The notes: generated from the letters alone by a model not told the origin. A stretch of 64,000 nt of DNA from an uncultured Candidatus Saccharibacteria bacterium (GCA_964646765.1 CAZYIA010000001.1:341621-405620); one strand, 5' to 3'. Positions 3,781 to 27,035 are shown, counted from the first letter of the stretch. Translations and numbers: made by a program.

Positions 3781-3935
3781 CGATAGTGAGCCAACTGCTT
3801 GGCTCACGTGGAAGGATCGAAAGGCTTTTCCATACGAGGCTCTGCGAGGCGGAAAAGCACCTGCTGGTGTAATCGACGATTCTCCTCGCCCGCACAAAAT
3901 AGAAAAAGCCCCTCTCAGGGCTCTTTCTTGTAGCT

Positions 3936-8374: not shown

Positions 8375-11300
8375 CTACTGTCCTTCTAACACTGCATTCA
8401 CCTGTGTACGTGTAACCGGACCAAAGTAGCCTTTAGCTGGAGAAATACGGTGAGCTTTTTGATAAGCAGCTAGGGCGCGCGTTGTTTTGCGGCCAAAGAA
8501 TTTCGTTTCGTGGCCAGGAGAACCTCCACCAGTTGTTGCTATCGAGAAATTATTATCATTGAGATACTTTTGAAGCAGCAGCACGTCTTGGTCAGTCATT
8601 CCCTCTTTCAAATTCTTTAAGAAGAGATGTGGCTGTTTTTTTTCAGGCTGCGGTGATTGAGTATCTGTTTTTACCGAACCAATAGTTCCCCCAATTGGAG
8701 AAAGTGGGCTGCTAACTAAAGTAACAATACCTCCACCAGAACTACCAGAACTTAATCGGAACGAGTAGCTACTATCATTACCAACTTCAACCCAGCCAAG
8801 CGCTGACTCACTATCACCTTCATTACTTACCGTGCTTACAATCCAATAATAGGTTCCGGGTAAAAGTGTTTGCCCTGGATTGCCTTGATAGTAAGTTCCA
8901 CCAAGAGCTTGCTGGCCAACCCTAAAGGAACTTGGGCCTGCTTCACCTAAAGCAGATTCGTACGTGATGAGTGTGTTGTTATCCATCAATGGATACGTAT
9001 TTCCAAGTGCAAACATATAGCCAACATGGGCAAGAGGATCGGTATGAGATGTCGTAAAGGTAAATGTTGGCTGAGTATCGTGGGTACTACCATTATTTAT
9101 TAGTGTTGCTGGACCAAGATTCGTTGGCACTCCTGGTGTACCAGCACAAGTAACATGAATAGTTACCATACCAATATCGGTGCCGCCGTGTTGGTCATCA
9201 ATGTTGTAGGTAAAACTGTCTGTGCCACAAAAATCAGAATCTGGAGTGTAGAATCCCACTCCAGTTCCTGGCGAAATAGAAGCTTCACCATGAGCTGCCT
9301 GGGTTTCTAAGCCATCTCCCAAAGAGTCGCCATCAGGATCAGTGTCGTTATCAAGAACTGCAATCATTACGCCTTCACGCTGTGGTGTGGTAACTTCATC
9401 ATCAACAGCAACTGGATTTTGATTCGGACAAGTAACAGTCACATGTACCGTAGCGTTAGCTGTCGCGTTTGAGGTATCAGAAATTGTATACGTAAATGAG
9501 TCAGAACCACAGAAATCTTCTTGGGGAGTATACAGAATGCTGCCATCAGAATATTCTGTATTAGCGTGACCAGAAAAACCAACGCCAGTGAGGGTAATTG
9601 CATCAAGGTCAGGATCAGAGTCATTTGCCCGAACATCGAATAGTGTTGGTGTGTTTATAGCAATAGTAAACGAATCATCAACGGCAAGTGGAGAATCATT
9701 AACCGGCGGTGGAGGCGGTGCAATATCACAGTGAACAGTAATCGTCACTGTCGCAGTAGCTGTATCAGTTCCATCAGATACCGTGTACTCAATCGTATCG
9801 TCACCGCAGAAATCTGTGTTAGGCGTATAGCTAAATCCCGAACCCGTACTCGTAGCATCGCCATGATGGGTAGTAAAATCAGTTATAGAAAGAGAATCAT
9901 CATCCGCGTCGGAGTCATTTACCAGAGCATCAAGTGCGTTCAATGAGGAATTTTGTTCTACAGTATATGCGTCATCAACAGCAACTGGTGCAGTATTTCC
10001 CCCACCACCTCCACCACCAAGTGCATCAACAGTGAGGCTCGCAGTATCAGTATCGATAGAAAATGCTGTGGTGCCGCCATTGGTAGTTGTATCTACGCTG
10101 GCTCCATGGCTACCGCTTGTTTGATCCCAAGCTCGGAAAGTAATAATGTCGCTAATAGTACCGCTATACCCTGGGTTTGGCTCACAATAAATGCGATCAG
10201 TCGTTGAAAGTAGCTGCGCAGAATCGTCAGCTACAGCGCCAAATAAATTCCACGTACTACCAGAATCAGTCGAGTAACGACAGGTTGTGTTAACGGAATC
10301 TATTCCAGTCACAGCGATACCGTACAATGCTCCTGAATCAACATCGGTAACATTATCCAATCCACCAATAATAGTAGCCGAGTCTACTAAATTAGAAACT
10401 AATGTTCCTACCGCACCACTAGGTGCGCCATCACCTTCAGTAACCGAATTAAAGACTGGGCTTTTTGAGTTGTCTAGCACGGGCGCATCGTTTACTGGAG
10501 TTACAAAAAGACCAATAGTATCCGTAGTATTTGAAAACGCAGTCGTCCCGCCGTTAATAGAAGGATTAGCTGTCCCCCCGTCACTACCGCTTGTTTGATC
10601 CCAAGCCCTGAAAGTTAATGCTGTGAATGATCCACTAGCATCGGCATTCGGTTGGCAGTAGATGCGGTTATCTGCATCCGCGGTAAGCAATCGAGCTACT
10701 GTAGCCGACACGGAGCCGAACAAAGACCATGTGGTTCCACCGTTTAGTGAATAGTAACAAGTTAGGCTGGAATCCTGCGCAATAACTGCGATACCAAGCT
10801 GGGCGCTACTATCACTATCTGTTACGTTATCAACTTGCCCAACAGGAGAAGCGAAGTCAACCAAAGATGCCACAAGCGTGCCAACTGCACCGCTTGGAGC
10901 TGAAGCATCTTCACTTACTGATGAGAGAGTTGGGCTCTTGGAAGCGTCGAGAACTGGTGCATCGTTTACTGAAGTACCTGTCATAGCCTTACTACCTGAT
11001 ATAGACAAAGCGCCGTCGCTAACGTTTGTTGTAATAGTAAAGTTGCTGCTGAAATTTGCCGACGGAGTAAACGTAAGGGCCGCAAGCAGTGTATTCACAT
11101 CCGCAATTGCACCACTGGCAGTCCAAACGCCAGTACCGGCGTTATACGTTGAGGTGACGGCGTTTGAAGTGGCGGTATTAAAACTTCCAGCTGCTGCATT
11201 TGAAAGAGTGAGTGTAGCGGTAACGTTTGCACTATCTACATCGCTTACAATAATATCGGTCAAATTCTGAGCCACATCTTCAGTGTATGTTTCAGCAGCA

Positions 11301-13141
11301 CTTAAGTTTGTAGCTGTCGGTGCATCATTAACCGCAGTACCGGTCACAGCTTTTGCTCCTGTCACCGCAGCAGCAACGCCATCACTTACTGATGTACTGA
11401 TAACAAAATTACTATTGAAGTTTGCCGTTGGAGTAAAGGTAACACTTGCAAGTAAAGTATTCACATTGGCAATTGCACCACTGGCAGTCCAGACACCAGT
11501 ACTAAACGTTGAGGTCACTGCTCCGGAAGTCCCTGTTGAGAGTGAACCGGCCGAAAGATTTGAAAGAGTCAACGTGGCAGTAACCGAGGAACTATCAACA
11601 TCTGTTGCCACAATATCTATGAGATTGAGTGGTGTATCTTCTGTGTATGTTTCAGCGGCGCTCAAGTTAGTTGCAGTCGGAGCATCGTTAACAGCTACTC
11701 CCGTCATTGCTTTCGAGCCAGTTACGCTTAGTGAACCATCACTTACGCTCGTGGTAATTGTAAAAGGACTATTGAAGTTAGCTGCGGGAGTAAACGTAAG
11801 TGCTGCAAGTAATATATTTACATTCGCAATTGCACCACTGGCAGTCCAAACACCGGTGCCGGCATTGTATGTAGATGTTACGGCCCCAGAAGTAGCAGTA
11901 TTAAAACTTCCGGCTGCAGTATTAGAGAGAGTGAGCGTCGCGGTAACGTTTGCACTATCTACATCACTCACAACAATATCGGTAAGATTAAGCGAAGTAT
12001 CTTCAGTATAGGTTTCTCCGGCACTAAGATTAGTTGCTGTCGGAGCGTCGTTAACCGCTACTCCTATCATTGTCTTTGAACCAGTTGCACTCAACGAACC
12101 ATCGCTCACGCTTGTCGTAATAGTAAAAGAGCTATTAAAATTCGTTGCCGGAGTAAATGTCAGCGCTGCTAACAACACATTCACATCCGCAATCGCACCA
12201 CTCGCAGTCCAAACACCAGTACCGGCGTTATACGTTGAGGTGACGGCGTTTGAAGTTCCGGTGTTGAGACTTCCAGCTGCAGTATTAGAGAGTGTGAGCG
12301 TGGCGGTTATATTTCCCCCATCAACGTCACTCGCAACAATATCAGTTAGATTAAGTGGTGTATCTTCCGTATACGTTTCAGCAGCGCTTAAGTTGGTTGC
12401 AGTTGGAGCACTATTGGCTGGTTTTAAAATCACAGTAAGGACAGCTCCGTAACCAGCGTTTGTGTTAGCTGTTGCCGTCAAACTTCCAGTAGCTGTTGCA
12501 CTTGTTTGAAGAAGGTAATCACTTTCCATTGAGATACCTGAAGTATTTGGCGTAGTAAGAGAGGAAAGATCGGATGACTCTGTCATGCCCGCAGGTGGTG
12601 TCCATGTACTAGAATGTTCATACTCAAAAAAACTCAACACCATAGCTCCATTTACGCTTGGAGTAACACTACCAACGGTGTGTGAGAGACTAGACGCAGT
12701 ATCTGTTCCCAAGTACGTATCTATCGGGCTACTCGTATCCCCTCCGGAAAATGCCATTGTGCTGCCGACAACACCAGTGTTCGTGCTTACTGTCCAAGTA
12801 TAGGAACTCGGCTCTGATCCAGTTGCAACCTTGTAATACACAGAGAGCCTTGTTGAAGTATTATTTGTATTAAGTACCGTTTGTATAGTCGTCCAGCCGG
12901 AAGGAGCAGTTATAGTTGCAGTTGATGAACGCACTGAAACTGCCGTAATAAGTATGTCGCCAGACGTTGTGCCAGTTGGTTTAGCTATTGAAAGACTCCC
13001 ACTTGTTCCGGTATCTGTGCTTACTGAACGATAACTGAGAGCCGCAAAAGCATTACTTGGCTTAAAAACAAATACGCAAAATGCAATGACAAGAAAGATA
13101 AATGGTGAGATTCTTTTCATGATTAAACTACTGTCGAGCAA
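8375..13141 (-). CDS. Giant secreted cell-surface protein of about 1580 aa. It carries tandem NDAP/cadherin-like repeats, sialidase-like (BNR-like) regions and a C-terminal peptidoglycan-binding domain.
   Basis: The N-terminal signal peptide is MKRISPFIFLVIAFCVFVFKPSNAFA. There are four tandem units of about 122 aa. The C-terminus has a PG_binding_1-like motif, LLLQKYLNDNNF...[11 protein letters not shown]. The true start may be the second Met. Confidence 0.8.
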   Translation of the reverse strand: MLDSSLIMKRISPFIFLVIAFCVFVFKPSNAFAALSYRSVSTDTGTSGSLSIAKPTGTTSGDILITAVSVRSSTATITAPSGWTTIQTVLNTNNTSTRLSVYYKVATGSEPSSYTWTVSTNTGVVGSTMAFSGGDTSSPIDTYLGTDTASSLSHTVGSVTPSVNGAMVLSFFEYEHSSTWTPPAGMTESSDLSSLTTPNTSGISMESDYLLQTSATATGSLTATANTNAGYGAVLTVILKPANSAPTATNLSAAETYTEDTPLNLTDIVASDVDGGNITATLTLSNTAAGSLNTGTSNAVTSTYNAGTGVWTASGAIADVNVLLAALTFTPATNFNSSFTITTSVSDGSLSATGSKTMIGVAVNDAPTATNLSAGETYTEDTSLNLTDIVVSDVDSANVTATLTLSNTAAGSFNTATSGAVTSTYNAGTGVWTASGAIANVNILLAALTFTPAANFNSPFTITTSVSDGSLSVTGSKAMTGVAVNDAPTATNLSAAETYTEDTPLNLIDIVATDVDSSSVTATLTLSNLSAGSLSTGTSGAVTSTFSTGVWTASGAIANVNTLLASVTFTPTANFNSNFVISTSVSDGVAAAVTGAKAVTGTAVNDAPTATNLSAAETYTEDVAQNLTDIIVSDVDSANVTATLTLSNAAAGSFNTATSNAVTSTYNAGTGVWTASGAIADVNTLLAALTFTPSANFSSNFTITTNVSDGALSISGSKAMTGTSVNDAPVLDASKSPTLSSVSEDASAPSGAVGTLVASLVDFASPVGQVDNVTDSDSSAQLGIAVIAQDSSLTCYYSLNGGTTWSLFGSVSATVARLLTADADNRIYCQPNADASGSFTALTFRAWDQTSGSDGGTANPSINGGTTAFSNTTDTIGLFVTPVNDAPVLDNSKSPVFNSVTEGDGAPSGAVGTLVSNLVDSATIIGGLDNVTDVDSGALYGIAVTGIDSVNTTCRYSTDSGSTWNLFGAVADDSAQLLSTTDRIYCEPNPGYSGTISDIITFRAWDQTSGSHGASVDTTTNGGTTAFSIDTDTASLTVDALGGGGGGGNTAPVAVDDAYTVEQNSSLNALDALVNDSDADDDSLSITDFTTHHGDATSTGSGFSYTPNTDFCGDDTIEYTVSDGTDTATATVTITVHCDIAPPPPPVNDSPLAVDDSFTIAINTPTLFDVRANDSDPDLDAITLTGVGFSGHANTEYSDGSILYTPQEDFCGSDSFTYTISDTSNATANATVHVTVTCPNQNPVAVDDEVTTPQREGVMIAVLDNDTDPDGDSLGDGLETQAAHGEASISPGTGVGFYTPDSDFCGTDSFTYNIDDQHGGTDIGMVTIHVTCAGTPGVPTNLGPATLINNGSTHDTQPTFTFTTSHTDPLAHVGYMFALGNTYPLMDNNTLITYESALGEAGPSSFRVGQQALGGTYYQGNPGQTLLPGTYYWIVSTVSNEGDSESALGWVEVGNDSSYSFRLSSGSSGGGIVTLVSSPLSPIGGTIGSVKTDTQSPQPEKKQPHLFLKNLKEGMTDQDVLLLQKYLNDNNFSIATTGGGSPGHETKFFGRKTTRALAAYQKAHRISPAKGYFGPVTRTQVNAVLEGQ
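10980..12445 (-). repeat. Four near-identical tandem repeats of about 366 bp inside the giant gene's coding sequence
   Basis: The DNA motif ...gcagtccaaac.ccagtaccggcgttatacgttgaggtgacggc... recurs at about 11120, 11480, 11840 and 12210. The encoded protein repeats begin NDAPTATNLSA(A/G)ETYTED. Confidence 0.75.
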
Positions 13142-13226
13142 CTAAAAAACCAGCGGGATAAAAAACCTTCAAAAATTTCATACCGGAATTGTACTAAATG
13201 GAGAGTGAAATGACTATGGAAAAGTG

Positions 13227-13345
13227 ACGGGAAGAATTTTCCCTCGCCTCTTGCTGTGCCGTCGCACAGCTCGGGCTGGGCACCGCCTCGCGGTTTGCTT
13301 TGCTAAGCAAACAACGCTCCGGCGTTCGAATCCTTACGGAAGCAA
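13227..13345 (+). other. Copy 1 of a duplicated structured element of about 100 nt. It is a candidate ncRNA of unknown class.
   Basis: It is about 85% identical to 26871..26990. Its hairpins are CTGTGCCGTCGCACAG and TTTGCTTTGCTAAGCAAA. A TTCGAATCC T-loop-like motif follows. Confidence 0.4.
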
Positions 13346-13364
13346 TTCAAATTGCTTCCTCCCA

Positions 13365-13396
13365 GCGCACAGAAGAAAAAAGCTGTCCTAAAAGAC
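13365..13396. terminator. Bidirectional intrinsic terminator hairpin
   Basis: Sequence AAAAAAGCTGTC-CTAAAA-GACAGCTCTTTTT. U-tracts are present on both strands. Confidence 0.5.
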
Positions 13397-13520: not shown

Positions 13521-14495
13521 TCAGCAATTTTCAATCAAATACTTCCTTACCATTGCCATTTCCTTATCCCTACCAGTCATATGCCAATATCGGAATTTCA
13601 TATAAGCGCTTAGAACGACGGCCGCGTGCAATGCTGATTTGTCATATGATGTATTGTCTGAGAAATAGCCTTCTTTTAATTTTTCAACATGGTCATAGTT
13701 GCCTAGTGCACTCAATATCTGAAGACTACGTCCGATGTCTATAATCGGATTATTGAACATTGGGTCTGGATCGATGATCGTGGGAGGGACAGATGCCATA
13801 ATATCGTCTACACAAAAATCCATATGACAATAAGAACTCTTTGGATTGCGTTCATCATAAGCAATAAGAGTGTCAATCACATTTGAGACTGGCCAAAGTT
13901 TCGTATCTAACAAACCAGCCTCCTCAACGTATTTGATTTTATTTTGCACTTTTTCACTCCTAATCCAATCCTTAAATGTCTTGTATTCTGCCTTACCATC
14001 CACAAGGTAGCCGTAACCTTCAGCGCTGGGCTTGTGCATAGTAAAAAGAATCTTTCCTAGATCGACCCATATATCACTCTTCACGAGGCCACTATTTATT
14101 GCTTCTGAAAGAACGGGTGCATCGATAAAGCTCATGAGTATGTAGGAGTAGTCTCCTAGTTTTCCCTCCTTATATATATGTGGCACAGTTACTCCAACAT
14201 CTTCCCATTTCTTTAAGAACAGAGCTTCTCCTTCGGCGTCAGGTTTCAAGGGAATTTTAAGAACATACTTATTAGTGCCTGCTTCAATAAATGCCACTAA
14301 GGCTGAGACACCTTGGTGGGAAAATTCCACGGAGATATCCTTACCAACGAACATTTCATCAGAAGAGAAAAAAGATTCTATAAGCGGAACAAGTGCTACG
14401 CGCCGATCATTGAATGTCTTATCAAACTCATGCTCTGAAAACCTTGGCTTATTTTTGTAATGTATCTGGGACATTAGGAAATTATAACGGAACAA
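13521..14495 (-). CDS. Phosphotransferase of the APH/choline-kinase fold
   Basis: Brenner-type catalytic motif HMDFCVDDIM and a downstream IIDPDPMF (DxD). Confidence 0.65.
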   Translation of the reverse strand: MFRYNFLMSQIHYKNKPRFSEHEFDKTFNDRRVALVPLIESFFSSDEMFVGKDISVEFSHQGVSALVAFIEAGTNKYVLKIPLKPDAEGEALFLKKWEDVGVTVPHIYKEGKLGDYSYILMSFIDAPVLSEAINSGLVKSDIWVDLGKILFTMHKPSAEGYGYLVDGKAEYKTFKDWIRSEKVQNKIKYVEEAGLLDTKLWPVSNVIDTLIAYDERNPKSSYCHMDFCVDDIMASVPPTIIDPDPMFNNPIIDIGRSLQILSALGNYDHVEKLKEGYFSDNTSYDKSALHAAVVLSAYMKFRYWHMTGRDKEMAMVRKYLIENC

Positions 14496-14542
14496 GAAAC
14501 CTGAGTGAAATTATGGAAAATAGTTTTGTGCGCCGGGAAGGA

Positions 14543-14557
14543 ATTTCTCGGCTTACA
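14543..14557. repeat. 15-bp direct repeat of the tRNA-Tyr 3' region. It is a putative attL/attR core.
   Basis: GTGCGCCGGGAAGGA is identical at 14543..14557 and 18876..18890. Confidence 0.5.
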
Positions 14558-14663
14558 GCCGCAGTACACCTTTTCGGCGAATTCAAAACAAGTTTCTCAT
14601 TTGCAGCGAAAAGCTCTTAGAATCCTTCCCGCGACTGAAGCAGTTCAGTCGCTCCGGCCACGT

Positions 14664-14689
14664 AAAAAACGGCCTTGAAGCCGTTTTTT
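14664..14689. terminator. Bidirectional terminator hairpin
   Basis: AAAAAACGGC-CTTGAA-GCCGTTTTTT. Confidence 0.55.
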
Positions 14690-14692
14690 AGT

Positions 14693-14890
14693 GTGTCTCT
14701 ATTGTACCAAGTTAGAACCTATTTCCAAAATAAATAAAGCGGACGAATTTTTGCGAAACAATTTTTCTGGGGAAAAGGATTCGCAAAAATTCGGCTGATT
14801 TTTTTTGAAATTCGGACTCGCCCGCGCGGAGGAGGGGTCTGGGGAGGAATCCGCGCGGGCTTCGGCTTTTTGTTTTTTGGCGGGGCGGGC
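14693..14890. repeat. IR1-L, a 198-bp perfect inverted repeat whose partner is 16809..17006
   Basis: Comparing the two arms by eye, they are exact reverse complements. Each arm contains a GC-rich hairpin, GCCCGCGCGGA...TCCGCGCGGGC, followed by a T-tract. Confidence 0.9.
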
Positions 14891-14928
14891 AAATAGAAAA
14901 AACAGCGAAAAAATGATAAAATGAATTT

Positions 14929-15423
14929 ATGGAAAATCCAGAGTTAAATCACGAAAAACCTCCTATTGCTGTTGAGAAAATATCTCACATTTTTTCGTCT
15001 AATGCCGAAAAGCGTATTTGTGTTGTTGGTGCAAGCTGTGTAGGAAAATCTACTTTACTTCGGTTTTTGCCAGAAGCTGTTGATATGGACGATTTGCTTT
15101 TCGGCAACAAACAAAAAGGAATTGAGCCATTACTTACACAACAAGAAAGAGATTATGTCTGTGGGCCTTGGACACCAGAAGTCGGTCAATTTATGACCAA
15201 GAAAGCCCACGAACTTATAAAAATTGAAGCAGGTCATCCAGTTTTCGGCACAATCGTTTTTCCATCAGATTTAGTAATTGAAGTGTCTGTTCCCGACGAT
15301 ATTTTACGAGAAAGGATTAGGCGAAGAAACTCAAATGAGCAAGATGTTTTTAACATGAAAGCACAAATTGAATCTGAAATTGAAAAGTCGGGTATAGAGA
15401 AAATTGTTATTGAAAATATATGA
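14929..15423 (+). CDS. Small P-loop NTPase (kinase-like)
   Basis: Walker A motif VVGASCVGKST. The protein is 164 aa. Confidence 0.45.
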   Translation: MENPELNHEKPPIAVEKISHIFSSNAEKRICVVGASCVGKSTLLRFLPEAVDMDDLLFGNKQKGIEPLLTQQERDYVCGPWTPEVGQFMTKKAHELIKIEAGHPVFGTIVFPSDLVIEVSVPDDILRERIRRRNSNEQDVFNMKAQIESEIEKSGIEKIVIENI

Positions 15424-16043
15424 AAATAATTCTCGCCTCAGATTTAAGTTTTCTTTTGAAATACGGTTATGATTTAACTGGCATTCCAAAGTCCGAAATG
15501 AAAATCGGATATATTACAACCGCTTCAAAAGGATCAAGAGATACGGCATTTCTTGAAAAAGTTAAAAATGCGATGAAAGAAAACGGTATTGATTTTGAGG
15601 AAATTGATATTGAGGGTAAAAGCAAAGATGAAATACTTAACTTTTTCAAGAACAAAAACATTATTCATGTTGAGGGCGGAAATACTTTTTATTTGCTAAA
15701 AGCAATTAGAGAAAGTGGTTTTGCAGAGGCACTGAAAGAATTATTGAACGAGGGGAAAATTTATATCGGCACAAGTGCGGGAGCGTATGTTATGTGTCCA
15801 ACTATTGAAGTAGCAAACTGGAATGAAACTGGTAGAGATAGATTTGGTTTAACTGATTTTTCAGCGTTAAATTATGTACCTTTTGTTTTGAAAGTCCATT
15901 ACAAAGACGAAATGGAAAATACAGTGAAAGAAAAAATGAGAACTCTAAAATATCCGCTTAGAATTTTGCGAGACGGACAAGGGATTTTGGTCGAAAATGG
16001 TGAATATGAATTTGTCGGAGATAATCCCGAAGTAATTTTTTAA
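15420..16043 (+). CDS. Peptidase family S51 (dipeptidase E / cyanophycinase-like)
   Basis: The family-typical HVEGGNTFYLL motif and IGTSAGA (Ser nucleophile region) are present. Confidence 0.6.
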   Translation: MKIILASDLSFLLKYGYDLTGIPKSEMKIGYITTASKGSRDTAFLEKVKNAMKENGIDFEEIDIEGKSKDEILNFFKNKNIIHVEGGNTFYLLKAIRESGFAEALKELLNEGKIYIGTSAGAYVMCPTIEVANWNETGRDRFGLTDFSALNYVPFVLKVHYKDEMENTVKEKMRTLKYPLRILRDGQGILVENGEYEFVGDNPEVIF

Positions 16044-16047
16044 ATTT

Positions 16048-16788
16048 ATGATTAAGCCCATTATTCTTGCAAAAGGAAATTTTAAGCCAGAAGATTTAAT
16101 GACAACAGTCAGTGAATCTAATAGGAAAATTGATCCGAACAGAGAAAATCAATTAAACACTCTTTGGGCGGAAAAAGAGAAGAATGCCAAAGAAAAGGGC
16201 AAATTAATATATAACGGACTTTCTTATCGCTTAAATAGCTTAAAAGCTGAAAATGGTAAATTGTTTTTAGATTTTGGAATTTTTGATTTTAAAACTAGAG
16301 AATGTTTACCGGAAACTCCCGGATTTTACGAAACGACGGAAGAATATTGGCGTAAAGGATGCCATACTATTGCTACAGTTAAAACCTCTGACGATAGGTA
16401 TTTAATGGTGGAACTTTCTGGAAAATCAATGAATAAAAACACAATTGAATTTTTGGGTGGCATAATGGAAACAGAACCACCAATAAAATTAGGTAAGGAC
16501 ATTTTCCATTCGTTATATAAAGAATTGGAAGAGGAAGCGTTTATTACTGAATCAGATATTGCCGATTCTAATTTAAAAATGGTTTATATAAATTGGAATA
16601 CAAATGTTGGTTTTTATTTTGAGATTTTATTAAAACTTACTTCAGAACAATTACAAGAAAGATTTAATGAACAAACAAAAGAAATTGATATTAAATCTCT
16701 AAAAATTATGTCTCGCCCAGAATATATCAATGTGTTAGAGAATCATAACCCTAATAAACAATTTTTAGCGAAGCAAATAGAGATTTAA
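16048..16788 (+). CDS. Hypothetical protein with a weak Nudix-like KELEEEAF segment that is not convincing
   Basis: The ORF is 246 aa. It is the third gene of the IR1-flanked cassette. Confidence 0.35.
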   Translation: MIKPIILAKGNFKPEDLMTTVSESNRKIDPNRENQLNTLWAEKEKNAKEKGKLIYNGLSYRLNSLKAENGKLFLDFGIFDFKTRECLPETPGFYETTEEYWRKGCHTIATVKTSDDRYLMVELSGKSMNKNTIEFLGGIMETEPPIKLGKDIFHSLYKELEEEAFITESDIADSNLKMVYINWNTNVGFYFEILLKLTSEQLQERFNEQTKEIDIKSLKIMSRPEYINVLENHNPNKQFLAKQIEI

Positions 16789-16808
16789 TAACCCCTTTTA
16801 GATTTTAA

Positions 16809-17006
16809 GCCCGCCCCGCCAAAAAACAAAAAGCCGAAGCCCGCGCGGATTCCTCCCCAGACCCCTCCTCCGCGCGGGCGAGTCCGAATTTCAAAAAAAA
16901 TCAGCCGAATTTTTGCGAATCCTTTTCCCCAGAAAAATTGTTTCGCAAAAATTCGTCCGCTTTATTTATTTTGGAAATAGGTTCTAACTTGGTACAATAG
17001 AGACAC
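16809..17006. repeat. IR1-R, a 198-bp perfect inverted repeat
   Basis: It is the reverse complement of 14693..14890. Confidence 0.9.
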
Positions 17007-17148
17007 CAGAATTTTACTAATCGGTTTTTTGGAAGCCCCAATGCGGGACGCGCGAAGCGCGTCCCAAGGATTCCCGCCGATTTTTCCTAATGAATTTGGA
17101 GCGTCGCCTTCGGCGACGCGCACTGTTTTCTCGCCAAGAAGCAGGTTC
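17004..17148. repeat. IR2-L, a 145-bp perfect inverted repeat whose partner is 18733..18877
   Basis: It is the exact reverse complement of IR2-R. It contains hairpins GGGACGCGC-GAA-GCGCGTCCC and GCGTCGCC-TTCG-GCGACGC. It overlaps IR1-R by 3 bp. Confidence 0.9.
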
Positions 17149-17344
17149 AAAATCAGAAGCAATTTTGACTCAGAGTATTTGCTTTGATACAAAAAGAATT
17201 TTTGCCTTTTTTCTAAAAGTAGTATAATGACCTTGCGCAAACTTACGGAAGGTCTATTTTAATGGCCGTCTTGGACTTATCTAGATCTTCTAGGTTTGCG
17301 CACCAGGGCGGCCATTTAAGTTTTATCAATTAATTTTTATTTCT

Positions 17345-18919
17345 ATGCAAAAATTCTTTTTGTATGCTCGCAAGTCAACCGATGTTGAAGATAAACAAGT
17401 GTTATCAATAGACGCTCAACTCACCGAATTGCGGGAGTTCGCCAAGAGAGAAAATTTAGTCATCGCCCGTGAGTTTATAGAAAAACAATCTGCTAAAATT
17501 CCAGGTCGTCCCGTTTTTAATGAAATGATGAAGTGTATTGAAAAGGGCGATGCAGATTGTATTCTCTCTTGGCATCCAGATCGTCTTGCCCGCAATTCAG
17601 TTGATGGTGGCAAGATTATTTACTTTTTAGACATCGGATTGCTTGCGAGCCTCAAATTCCCACAGTTTTGGTTTGAAAGTACGCCACAGGGCAAATTTAC
17701 GCTTTCTATGGCATTTGTACAAAGCAAATACTATGTAGATTCTCTTTCCGATAACACGAAAAGAGGACTTCGCCAAAAAGTACGCATGGGAATATTCCCA
17801 AGCCAAGCGCCAATCGGTTATATAAACGACAGTCGCACCAAAACGATTGTGGTAGAAAAGAAGAAAGCAAAAATCTTGCGCTTGGCTTTTGAACGATATG
17901 TGAAAGGAAATCAAAGGTTAGAGGATATCGCAACTTTTTTGGCAAAGAACGGAATATCTACGCGTTCCGGAAAGAGAATCTCAAAAACGAGAGTGGCTTT
18001 CATTTTGTCCAATCTGTTCTATGTCGGACTTTTTAACTATGCCGGTGAACTTCACGAGGGTAAGCACGAGCCAATCATTTCAAAGAAACTTTTTGATGAA
18101 GCACAGGAAATGCTGAAACTTCGTGGACAACCAGAGCGTAAACCACAAAATGAACCCCAATCTTTCTGCGGACTCATTTCCTGTGCCTCATGCGGGATGA
18201 TGATAACTGGCGAATACAAGGTGAAGAAACAGAAAAATGGCAATGTCCACAATTACACCTACTACCACTGCACGAAAAAACGCAAAGATATGAAATGTCC
18301 CGAACCTTGTATTCGGGAAGAAGAATTAGATCGCCAGTTATCATCTCTAATCAAAAAAGTTTCTTTGCCCAAAGACTGGGCGGAGGAATTGTTAAAAATG
18401 GCAGAAAACGAACATGGAAATTCCGCCCAGTCTTTGACTGCTTGTGTGAAAGAGAACGAAACAAAAATATCGGTCATTTCACAAAAGTTGGAGCGACTTC
18501 TTAATGGATATTTAGAGCAAGATATTGAAAAAGAAGTTTATCGCATAGAAAAAGCAAAACTTGTGTTGCAAAAGAAGTCGCTTGAAGAAGAAATGACCTC
18601 TCTTTCACACAAGCAGAATGATTGGCTCGAACCCTTTACCGAATGGGTGAAAGCCGCTCAATCATTGGACAAAATTGCTTCTGATGATGACCTTTTTGCA
18701 AAAAAGGTCAAAGCCAAAGAAATCTTTGGCTCGAACCTGCTTCTTGGCGAGAAAACAGTGCGCGTCGCCGAAGGCGACGCTCCAAATTCATTAGGAAAAA
18801 TCGGCGGGAATCCTTGGGACGCGCTTCGCGCGTCCCGCATTGGGGCTTCCAAAAAACCGATTAGTAAAATTCTGGTGCGCCGGGAAGGATTCGAACCTTC
18901 GCAGCCCGAAGGCGCTTGA
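17345..18919 (+). CDS. Large serine recombinase (resolvase/invertase catalytic domain, recombinase domain and zinc ribbon)
   Basis: Catalytic region YARKSTDVEDKQ..SIDAQ and W.PDRLARN. There is a Cys-rich zinc ribbon, CGLISCASCG...YYHCTKKRKDMKCPEPC. The 3' tail is encoded by IR2-R and runs antisense into tRNA-Tyr. Confidence 0.85.
   Translation: MQKFFLYARKSTDVEDKQVLSIDAQLTELREFAKRENLVIAREFIEKQSAKIPGRPVFNEMMKCIEKGDADCILSWHPDRLARNSVDGGKIIYFLDIGLLASLKFPQFWFESTPQGKFTLSMAFVQSKYYVDSLSDNTKRGLRQKVRMGIFPSQAPIGYINDSRTKTIVVEKKKAKILRLAFERYVKGNQRLEDIATFLAKNGISTRSGKRISKTRVAFILSNLFYVGLFNYAGELHEGKHEPIISKKLFDEAQEMLKLRGQPERKPQNEPQSFCGLISCASCGMMITGEYKVKKQKNGNVHNYTYYHCTKKRKDMKCPEPCIREEELDRQLSSLIKKVSLPKDWAEELLKMAENEHGNSAQSLTACVKENETKISVISQKLERLLNGYLEQDIEKEVYRIEKAKLVLQKKSLEEEMTSLSHKQNDWLEPFTEWVKAAQSLDKIASDDDLFAKKVKAKEIFGSNLLLGEKTVRVAEGDAPNSLGKIGGNPWDALRASRIGASKKPISKILVRREGFEPSQPEGA
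18733..18877. repeat. IR2-R, a 145-bp perfect inverted repeat
   Basis: It is the reverse complement of 17004..17148. It ends within the CACCA 3' end of tRNA-Tyr. Confidence 0.9.
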
Positions 18920-18958
18920 TTTACAGTCAAGTGCGATTGACCACTCCGCCACCGACGC
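18873..18958 (-). tRNA. tRNA-Tyr(GTA), type II, with CCA encoded
   Basis: Acceptor stem GCGTCGG/CCGGCGC. Anticodon stem CTTGA/TCAAG with loop CTGTAAA. There is a long variable arm. T-arm GAAGG-TTCGAAT-CCTTC. The 3' end is ACCA. Confidence 0.8.
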
Positions 18959-19120
18959 AACTTTGCGACATAAGGTCGCAATCCTCTCTAATGCTCGCCA
19001 CGCTGCGTCGGTGTCGGCCACCTTCGCTACGCTTCGGATAAAAACTGAAGCAGTCCAGTTTTTATCCACCGACGCAATAGAAAACTCTACTAGTATAGTC
19101 AAAAATCGCTTTTTGTCACG

Positions 19121-26870: not shown

Positions 26871-27035
26871 AAATGCGAGGGATCTCCCTCGCCTCTCACT
26901 GTGCCGTCGCACAGTTCGGGCTGGACACCGCCTCACGATTTGCTCTGCTGAGCAAATATCGCTCCGGCGTTCGATCCCTACTCGCACGCCACGCAGGTGG
27001 CGTGCTTGGGCAGGACAAAGAGCGCTTCGCGATTT
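26871..27035 (+). other. Copy 2 of the duplicated structured element. It extends into a hairpin-rich segment that abuts tRNA-Lys.
   Basis: It is about 85% identical to 13227..13345 over roughly 95 nt. There are compensatory changes in two hairpins. The motif GTTCGATCCCTAC is identical to the T-loop and stem of the adjacent tRNA-Lys but in inverted orientation. Read on the minus strand, it ends in GCGAGGGA-GATC-TCCCTCGC followed by a T-tract. Confidence 0.4.

Follow-up and report, generated by a model that had tools for sequence, protein, structure and literature searches.

The tRNA-Tyr locus of an uncultured Candidatus Saccharibacteria bacterium is probably layered: an element encoding a large serine recombinase (LSR) appears to have landed between the tRNA gene and an older tRNA-linked module, and a 15-nt repeat of the tRNA 3' end belongs to that module as one of its strands. 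The DNA analysed, hereafter the window, is a stretch of 64,000 nt (GCA_964646765.1 CAZYIA010000001.1:341621-405620).

The 15-mer, GTGCGCCGGGAAGGA, has exactly two copies in the whole window with up to two mismatches allowed, at 14528-14542 and 18875-18889, whereas 0.04 matches are expected by chance at that stringency. It is the antisense of tRNA-Tyr from U60 through the 3' strands of the T-stem and acceptor stem to A73 and C74, and thus lies within the T-arm and acceptor region, as originally predicted. The sequence had been given correctly, but its coordinates (14543..14557 and 18876..18890) were shifted, by 15 nt at the left copy and by 1 nt at the right. A near-inverted copy of the same tRNA segment, which had been placed about 75 bp further on, was found at 14620-14635 (GAATCCTTCCCGCGAC), 77 nt past the left 15-mer. 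Both copies pair in the fold of the minus strand of 14520-14700 (-68.8 kcal/mol, z = -5.1 with 200 shuffles). Given this z-score and the low number of expected matches, the repeat and the hairpin are real and not due to chance.

Anatomy of the tRNA-Tyr locus

The features of the window, with the evidence in brackets, are the following.

18873..18958, minus strand: tRNA-Tyr(GTA) (ARAGORN; Rfam tRNA, 62 bits)
14693..18874, plus strand: integrated LSR element, 4182 nt (nested inverted repeats, comparison with other loci)
14693..14890, minus strand: IR1-L, inverted copy of the P region, pairing with 16809-17006 and ending ...AGAGACAC at 14693
14929..16788, plus strand: three-gene cargo between the IR1 arms (ORFs, domain search, low GC)
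16809..17006, plus strand: IR1-R, the P region, with a promoter-like TTGGAA-16-TACAAT site at 16971-16998, just before CAC
17004..17148, plus strand: IR2-L ("tail"), 5' leader of the LSR gene, pairing with 18733-18877, with a terminator-like hairpin at 17101-17119
17345..18919, plus strand: LSR ORF, 524 aa (Pfam Resolvase, Recombinase and Zn_ribbon_recom)
18733..18877, plus strand: IR2-R ("tail'"), 145 nt, 100% complementary to 17004-17148, abutting the tRNA
14528..14692, minus strand: 3'-type tRNA-linked structured module, about 165 nt, in host DNA outside the LSR element (fold z = -5.1)
14664..14689, minus strand: intrinsic-terminator-like palindrome, next to the tRNA before the island (sequence)
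14631..14652, minus strand: hp1 signature hairpin, GCGACTGAA-CTGC-TTCAGTCGC
14620..14631, minus strand: anti-T segment CGGGAAGGATTC, 5' strand of the closing helix and inverted partial copy (sequence, fold)
14528..14542, minus strand: direct copy of tRNA-Tyr U60 to C74, 3' strand of the closing helix and thus the 15-mer (sequence)
13224..13375, minus strand: second tRNA-Tyr-derived module (anti-acceptor GTGCGCTGGGA, hp1 variant, degenerate direct copy TCTTCCCGTCAC)
3782-3897, plus strand: module behind tRNA-Trp (degenerate direct copy CGATTCTCCTCGCCCGC, then the native terminator)
26880-27035, minus strand: module behind tRNA-Lys(CTT), inside a Lys/Leu tRNA cluster (covariance model, E = 3e-5, non-seed)
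18959..19076, minus strand: 5'-type counterpart upstream of tRNA-Tyr (direct copy, hairpin, inverted copy; fold z = -5.4)

The LSR element is arranged in the order P' (IR1-L), cargo, P (IR1-R) joined to tail (IR2-L), leader, LSR gene and tail' (IR2-R), and is located exactly at C72-A73-C74 (CAC) of tRNA-Tyr, positions 18877-18875. Its ends are 14693-14695 and 18875-18877, with GTG/CAC as the only sequence common to both. IR2-R reaches 5 nt into the tRNA (CACCA), so that C75-A76 (18874-18873) lie inside it and are supplied by the element, which also gives tRNA-Tyr the terminator hairpin at 18780-18762. The two nested inverted repeats are adjacent and perfect (IR1, 198 nt; IR2, 145 nt; both 100% identical). 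IR1-R meets the tail via CAC (17004-17006) in an intact attP-like junction, and IR1-L carries its promoter-like TTGGAA-16-TACAAT at 14728-14701, directed out of the element. An invertible switch was considered in view of the inverted repeats and rejected: inversion would merely flip the LSR gene between two promoters, and P', the tRNA and the attP-type joints fit integration better.

The cargo genes encode a P-loop kinase-like protein (14929-15423), a Peptidase_S51 protein (15420-16043) and an unknown protein (16048-16788), with a GC content of 0.29-0.34 against 0.41-0.47 in the flanks. The recombinase has the three domains of an LSR (PF00239, 1.2e-19; PF07508, 2.7e-17; PF13408, 3.7e-08), and a YARKST motif was read from the ORF at its N-terminus. 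Its last 50 codons or so are encoded by IR2-R, and its stop codon is within the antisense of tRNA-Tyr. The C-terminus reads ...SKILV-RREGFEPSQPEGA-stop when joined to tRNA-Tyr, the residues GFEP coming from the T-loop antisense, and ...SKILV-SLLYQVRTYFQNK-stop when joined to P' (compare 16962-17240, minus strand). The leader from the tail to the LSR start codon (17149-17344) is conserved in 52 loci and contains paired segments.

The left copy of the 15-mer lies 150 nt outside the end of the island, in host DNA. Once 14693-18874 is removed, the module of which it is part aligns with three tRNA-Tyr loci of other organisms of the candidate phyla radiation (CPR; L123, L135, L175) and fits the alignment of the second module subfamily; covariance model R1 scores it at 81 bits, with this sequence in its seed. 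Its hp1, GCGACTGAACTGCTTCAGTCGC, then stands 40 nt from tRNA-Tyr, inside the span of 5-120 nt 3' of a tRNA or tmRNA gene that defines the family, and in its anti-T helix CGGGAAGGA pairs with TCCTTCCCG, the exact copy starting here at U60, not at C56. The subfamily motifs of the variable domain (GCTTTTC...GAAAAGGTRTACTG-hairpin-YGTAA) are present according to alignment A2 and the similarity to L175, which has GGTGTACTGC..TGTAA..GAGAAATTCCYTCCCG in common with the window. In the three tRNA-Tyr loci, the tRNA, palindrome, anti-acceptor, hp1, anti-T and variable domain are contiguous, with no island, so that the 15-mer region stays and only the LSR element is absent. The original prediction had called for an empty site without 14558..18875; the uninterrupted loci keep the module region instead. 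The LSR element was therefore inserted after the tRNA-linked module was already present, which bears out the earlier suggestion of successive insertions. The hairpin had been seen as their possible scar, but it is the conserved closing helix of a module family.

The second tRNA-Tyr-derived module was found by the covariance model at 13286-13359 (E = 0.0045, outside the seed). On the minus strand, an APH-like kinase gene (13521-14495) and its terminator stand between the direct copy of the first module and the second module. About 65 nt following each direct copy look duplicated (alignment score 43, shuffle maximum 39) and contain a promoter-like TTCACT...TAnAAT. By analogy, the APH-like gene between two modules resembles a gene cassette in an array. 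Beyond the second module, 8375-13141 (minus strand) is an ORF of 1588 aa in which a segment of some 100 aa (TATNLSA(A/G)ETYTEDT...) recurs about five times almost unchanged; the product is probably a surface protein.

On the other side of tRNA-Tyr, the 5'-type structure comprises a promoter-like site, a 10-nt copy of the tRNA 5' end (19066-19075), an hp1-like hairpin with a CTGC loop (19037-19068) and an inverted copy (19005-19014). Copies of the 5' type in L119, L157 and L186 consist of a partial tRNA up to the GG of the D-loop, hp1 and the full tRNA. With tRNA-Tyr pieces on both sides of the gene (5' 10-mer, 3' 15-mer, inverted bits), the 15-mer and its inverted copy might be read as leftovers of tRNA-Tyr, either a decayed pseudogene or a tandem duplication of the gene. 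This is highly improbable, as the interior does not resemble a tRNA, modules beside unrelated tRNAs have the same hp1 and variable-domain motifs, and the 5' strand complements the tRNA 3' strand perfectly, A73 and C74 included, and does not copy the tRNA 5' strand.

The LSR element at tRNA genes of other CPR genomes

Homologues of the LSR number in the thousands in Patescibacteria/CPR, with 67-93% identity, and the nearest solved structures are those of A118 Int and SPbeta SprA/YokA (E about 1e-9). No exact protein match was found for the LSR or for the S13 peptidase, and the search for close relatives through the flanking S13 peptidase (genome contigs) and the APH-like protein (metagenome contigs) found none. 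The empty site of this species, tRNA-Tyr joined to ACTAAAAAACGG without the element, was not seen, there being no close relative among the contigs searched; tRNA-Tyr followed directly by AAAACTATTTTCC would be the form with neither module nor island. The comparison was made over 83 loci, L001-L003 and 80 from GTDB genomes.

In almost all loci with downstream sequence, the end of the LSR core is followed by a convergent tRNA gene after discrete spacers of 110-167 nt, mostly 143 nt. These tRNAs are of at least nine identities (Leu, Arg, Val, Gly, Tyr, Ile, Lys, Glu, Cys). The 28-nt promoter-like block P and the joint P...CAC-CA-tail are conserved in unrelated genomes (L002, L085 and many others), and the inverted P' copy is found 2-3 kb upstream in L013, L020, L032, L048 and L055, as in the window. 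In L013, L032, L048, L055 and the window, P' ends in ...CAC and unrelated DNA follows at once, often with an intrinsic terminator, as in L032 and L055. The cargo varies: L055 has a zeta-toxin-like kinase and an HD protein, whereas other elements encode large unknown proteins.

The LSR frame is open across the full right arm in 67 of 68 loci, compared to 24-40 of 68 for the other five frames, and third codon positions are the most variable in this arm. For these reasons, the right arm is considered to encode the C-terminus of the LSR, with the stop beyond the junction. The tail of the protein may depend on the state of the element, being set by the partner of the right arm. The conserved frame also bears on whether the perfect inverted repeats, and hence the island structure, are artefacts of metagenome assembly. 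Both repeats are 100% identical, and 48 of 80 related contigs are broken at less than 500 nt ahead of the LSR gene, the outcome to be expected from a left repeat arm that cannot be assembled. That the repeats themselves are artefactual is nonetheless hardly credible, since imperfect arms occur in independent assemblies (95 and 99% identity in L020, 93-94% in L062, 97% in L002) and the LSR frame is kept across the right arm.

L062 (600-6800) has a more distantly related member of the family (68% identity): about 5.6 kb, including the LSR gene and repeat arms, separate tRNA-Leu(TAA) from tRNA-Lys(CTT), and IR1 and IR2 overlap by 39 nt. These tRNAs are normally adjacent in a conserved Cys/Leu-TAA/Lys-CTT/Leu-TAG cluster (see L001). 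In L085, a LAGLIDADG-type ORF (1979-2764) ends 13 nt within the 5' end of tRNA-Tyr, beside the TyrRS gene.

The distal end is readable in six elements. In four (L013, L032, L048, L055), it has no tRNA repeat of 10 nt or more; in the other two, the window and L020, a module is present, which could hint at a further link between LSR elements and modules. L020 repeats the whole architecture of the window at tRNA-Leu(CAA), with 15 nt of this tRNA and an inverted T-loop piece at its distal end, and L101 is its uninterrupted counterpart. Subtracting the element from the distance between the tRNA and its copy leaves 148 nt in the window (4330 - 4182) and 130 nt in L020 (5264 - 5134). A motif, GCCGGAGCG...TCGCG, was tried as a further link between the window and L020 and discarded, its other hits (L046, L065) being GC-rich parts of IR1 and not modules.

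In L084, L015 and L049, tail'-GTG-P' is contiguous, as it should be in an un-integrated element whose attP is reconstituted. L084 has the closest LSR (92% identical) on a contig without tRNA. Comparison of P-CAC-tail with tRNA-CAC-flank leaves GTG/CAC as the only shared core. We therefore read attB as the tRNA 3' end at C72-A73-C74 and attP as P-CAC-CA-tail, both being assignments from sequence.

Under the original prediction, 14543-18874 would be a single island in the tRNA-Tyr 3' end, with the 15-bp repeat as the core of attL and attR. Foreign DNA is indeed integrated there, the recombinase gene adjoins the tRNA and the cargo is of low GC; the 15-mer is exact and unique in the window, covers the tRNA segment typical for integrative islands and has the same arrangement in L020. 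The island of a tyrosine integrase would, however, have the repeat exactly at both ends of the unit and the integrase inside. Here the unit ends at 14693 with the repeat 150 nt farther out, neither the ORFs read from this part of the window nor the scanned cargo proteins include a tyrosine recombinase, and the sole recombinase is a serine enzyme, for which long repeats are neither needed nor made. Four of the six readable elements lack the repeat, nothing stands between tail', GTG and P' in the un-integrated joints, and segments of the 14528-14692 type follow island-free tRNA-Tyr, tRNA-Leu(CAA) and many other tRNAs. The single island is thus very unlikely. Because it lies past the end of the element, and because the module is found behind island-free tRNA and tmRNA genes, the 15-mer is not the att repeat of the island, the ends of which are 14693-14695 and 18875-18877.

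In the layered reading, the oldest layer would be the module of about 165 nt directly 3' of tRNA-Tyr, running on the minus strand from 14692 to 14528. The LSR element would then have integrated at C72-A73-C74 by recombination of attP (P-CAC-CA-tail) with attB (...GCGCAC-ACTAAAA), presumably catalysed by the LSR, with the crossover dinucleotide inside the shared GTG/CAC. The element would thereby have donated C75-A76 and a new terminator to tRNA-Tyr and displaced the module by 4.2 kb.

The element carries two inverted attP-like joints, and its LSR frame crosses the junction. In nine loci (L001, L008, L014, L016, L018, L036, L047, L066, L073), a co-oriented tRNA replaces P on the left, giving tRNA(+)-tail-LSR-tail'-tRNA(-), with tRNAs on both sides. 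This is the product that would be expected if the second attP-like joint recombined with another tRNA, and the two-sided loci imply that both joints can be presumed to have recombined with tRNA genes; such events would invert or delete the chromosome segments between tRNAs. In L203, the direct copy of a module adjoins an LSR-type element from which the LSR gene has been lost (...CGCGCAC-CAGAATAAAAC..., followed by an inverted tail remnant, GTG-P' and cargo), indicating that a module direct copy can act as attB and that the determinants of attB are within C56-C74. In our judgement, the element at tRNA-Tyr in the window would be a new LSR element, with two attP-like joints and tRNA ends as its apparent target.

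The hp1 module family

On the tRNA strand, modules comprise in order the tRNA, an optional terminator palindrome and complement of the acceptor 3' strand including A73 and C74, hp1, the anti-T segment, a variable hairpin domain and the direct copy. The hp1 hairpin has a 9-bp stem and a CTGC loop (consensus GCRAGCAAACTGCTTTGCTYG), and the anti-T segment is the complement of the T-stem 3' strand and T-loop (...AATCGAA). When 149 tRNAs of the LSR loci were scanned, self-copies of the 3' end of 15-20 nt were found 97-160 nt downstream of LSR-free tRNAs (L025, L032, L037, L038, L059; at 21 nt in L036). The 148 nt of the window and the 130 nt of L020, obtained by subtracting the element, are within this range.

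An exact-pattern scan of metagenome contigs found hp1 in at least 120 loci. Among the matches listed, 81 of 125 are located 6-120 nt downstream of a co-oriented tRNA, essentially all tRNA identities being represented, and several other copies follow tmRNA genes. In L099, L134, L147 and L189, the module stands about 40-50 nt after the tmRNA 3' end, with two in tandem in L099. A direct copy of at least 9 nt accompanies 51 of 75 of the matches listed (mode, 19 nt); direct copies start at T-loop position 3 (C56) and mostly end at the tRNA end, at the discriminator or C74. An LSR homologue is present at only 2 of the 120 hp1 loci listed, indicating that the module is independent of the LSR.

The helix between anti-T and T has 9-11 Watson-Crick base pairs and changes with each tRNA. 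The R/Y pair of hp1 covaries (123:2), and RNAalifold analysis of two subfamilies revealed compensatory changes in 28 of 43 and 11 of 22 pairs; it also showed conserved G.U pairs, which are confined to the tRNA-sense strand. The second subfamily alignment, which includes the Tyr and Trp copies of the window, gave a covariance model that retrieved two non-seed copies in the window and six in the LSR loci. Searches of Rfam with the window and nine module loci yielded no family covering the module at E ≤ 1, hp1 has no match in IMG/VR, and a literature search found no description of it. The module family is abundant, strongly structured and apparently undescribed. Group I or II intron, IS200/IS605, bridge-RNA and omega-RNA-like readings were considered and not adopted, their defining features being missing (splice-site nucleotides, an adjacent TnpB/IscB or DEDD gene; absence of target duplication).

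Whether the module is a DNA site or an RNA is the weakest part of the analysis. A role as end-piece of small cassettes that recombine into the segment of tRNA genes from the T-loop to the 3' end is favoured, on account of the decay of direct copies, the position of native terminators, the tandem arrays and the versions containing genes. Direct copies and anti-T segments are often decayed, as behind tRNA-Trp and tRNA-Lys in the window, the native terminator usually comes after the direct copy, and tandem module arrays exist. A tRNA-side arm and an inverted arm can also have genes between them: in L190 (300-3950), tRNA-Ser(TGA) with 23 nt of its flank recurs as an exact inverted copy 3.2 kb downstream, just before hp1, enclosing genes for a methyltransferase, a SMODS nucleotidyltransferase and a SLATT effector (CBASS-like defence). 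The insert would supply a working tRNA 3' part, and the displaced original would stay as the direct copy and then decay. We know of no standard insertion mechanism that accounts for the target-specific inverted copy of the module.

Alternatively, the module would be a functional non-coding trailer RNA with a helix resembling the acceptor and T-arm; selection or gene conversion would maintain its match to the tRNA, and it would not result from DNA mobility. Strict co-orientation with the tRNA speaks for it, as do the multi-helix structure with its compensatory changes, the conservation of the hp1 sequence across CPR lineages and short forms that lie within tRNA operons with no terminator in between. 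The conserved sense-strand G.U pairs belong here too, but they fit folded single-stranded DNA as well as RNA. In many copies, however, a strong terminator-like palindrome stands between the tRNA and hp1, which argues against simple co-transcription. Moreover, the decay of direct copies and anti-T segments is frequent, the tandem arrays and gene-containing versions look like DNA insertion, and Rfam holds no matching family. A trailer RNA is regarded as the less likely of the two.

A wider proposal, put forward tentatively, is that hp1 modules are previously undescribed CPR elements anchored at tRNA and tmRNA genes, with a closing helix rewritten for each host tRNA. They would be either folded-strand recombination sites that capture cassettes, attC analogues docking at the segment from the T-loop to the 3' end, or tRNA-mimicking trailer RNAs; their direct copies would multiply the landing sites for CPR-wide dual-attP LSR elements able to rearrange chromosomes between tRNA genes.

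A tRNA 3'-end repeat in CPR genomes thus need not mark the boundary of an island, and island finders that pair tRNA fragments would mis-call the ends at such loci. The LSR family is compact and very widespread, and it seemingly targets a feature that most tRNAs have in common; this has implications for host range, for rearrangements in reduced genomes and, possibly, for the development of recombinase tools. The choice between RNA and recombination site bears on how minimal bacteria acquire genes beside tRNAs.

Comparison with known systems

The window LSR is the same three-domain enzyme as those of A118, SPbeta (SprA), Tn4451 (TnpX) and SCCmec (Ccr). As in these elements, the recombinase gene is at the end of the element beside attB, and the junctions share 3 nt only, as expected for a 2-bp crossover. 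Unlike in known LSR elements, attB consists of C72-A73-C74 of tRNAs of many identities and not of one specific gene, two inverted attP-like joints are embedded in inverted repeats of about 340 nt, and the reading frame of the LSR crosses the junction; the LSR has no match among IMG/VR viral contigs. A change of the 3' end of the recombinase frame upon recombination is also known from SSV1-type integrases, in which attP is inside int, but the window LSR exchanges only its last few codons and the stop codon, and is a serine, not a tyrosine, recombinase.

The module shares with tyrosine-integrase tRNA islands and CIMEs a direct repeat of the tRNA 3' end, tandem accretion and a decaying displaced copy. 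It differs in its units of 100-280 nt without integrase, its conserved multi-helix structure, its target-specific inverted copy and a family repeat that starts at C56. Like REP/REPIN and MITE-type repeats, modules are multi-copy short hairpins after genes and near terminators, but their terminal arms are copied from the local target and differ at every tRNA, and they are strictly oriented and tRNA-linked.

The attC sites of integron cassettes are likewise structured, strand-specific elements of 60-150 nt, imperfect palindromes that follow promoterless cargo and can be arrayed. Genes at modules occupy a "loop" position in an integron-like manner, as do the APH gene in the window and the SMODS/SLATT pair in L190. 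GTTRRRY core sites are not evident, and IntI and attI were not noticed in the ORFs and sequence read. In contrast to attC, the closing helix of the module is host tRNA sequence, and the module is anchored at tRNA and tmRNA genes.
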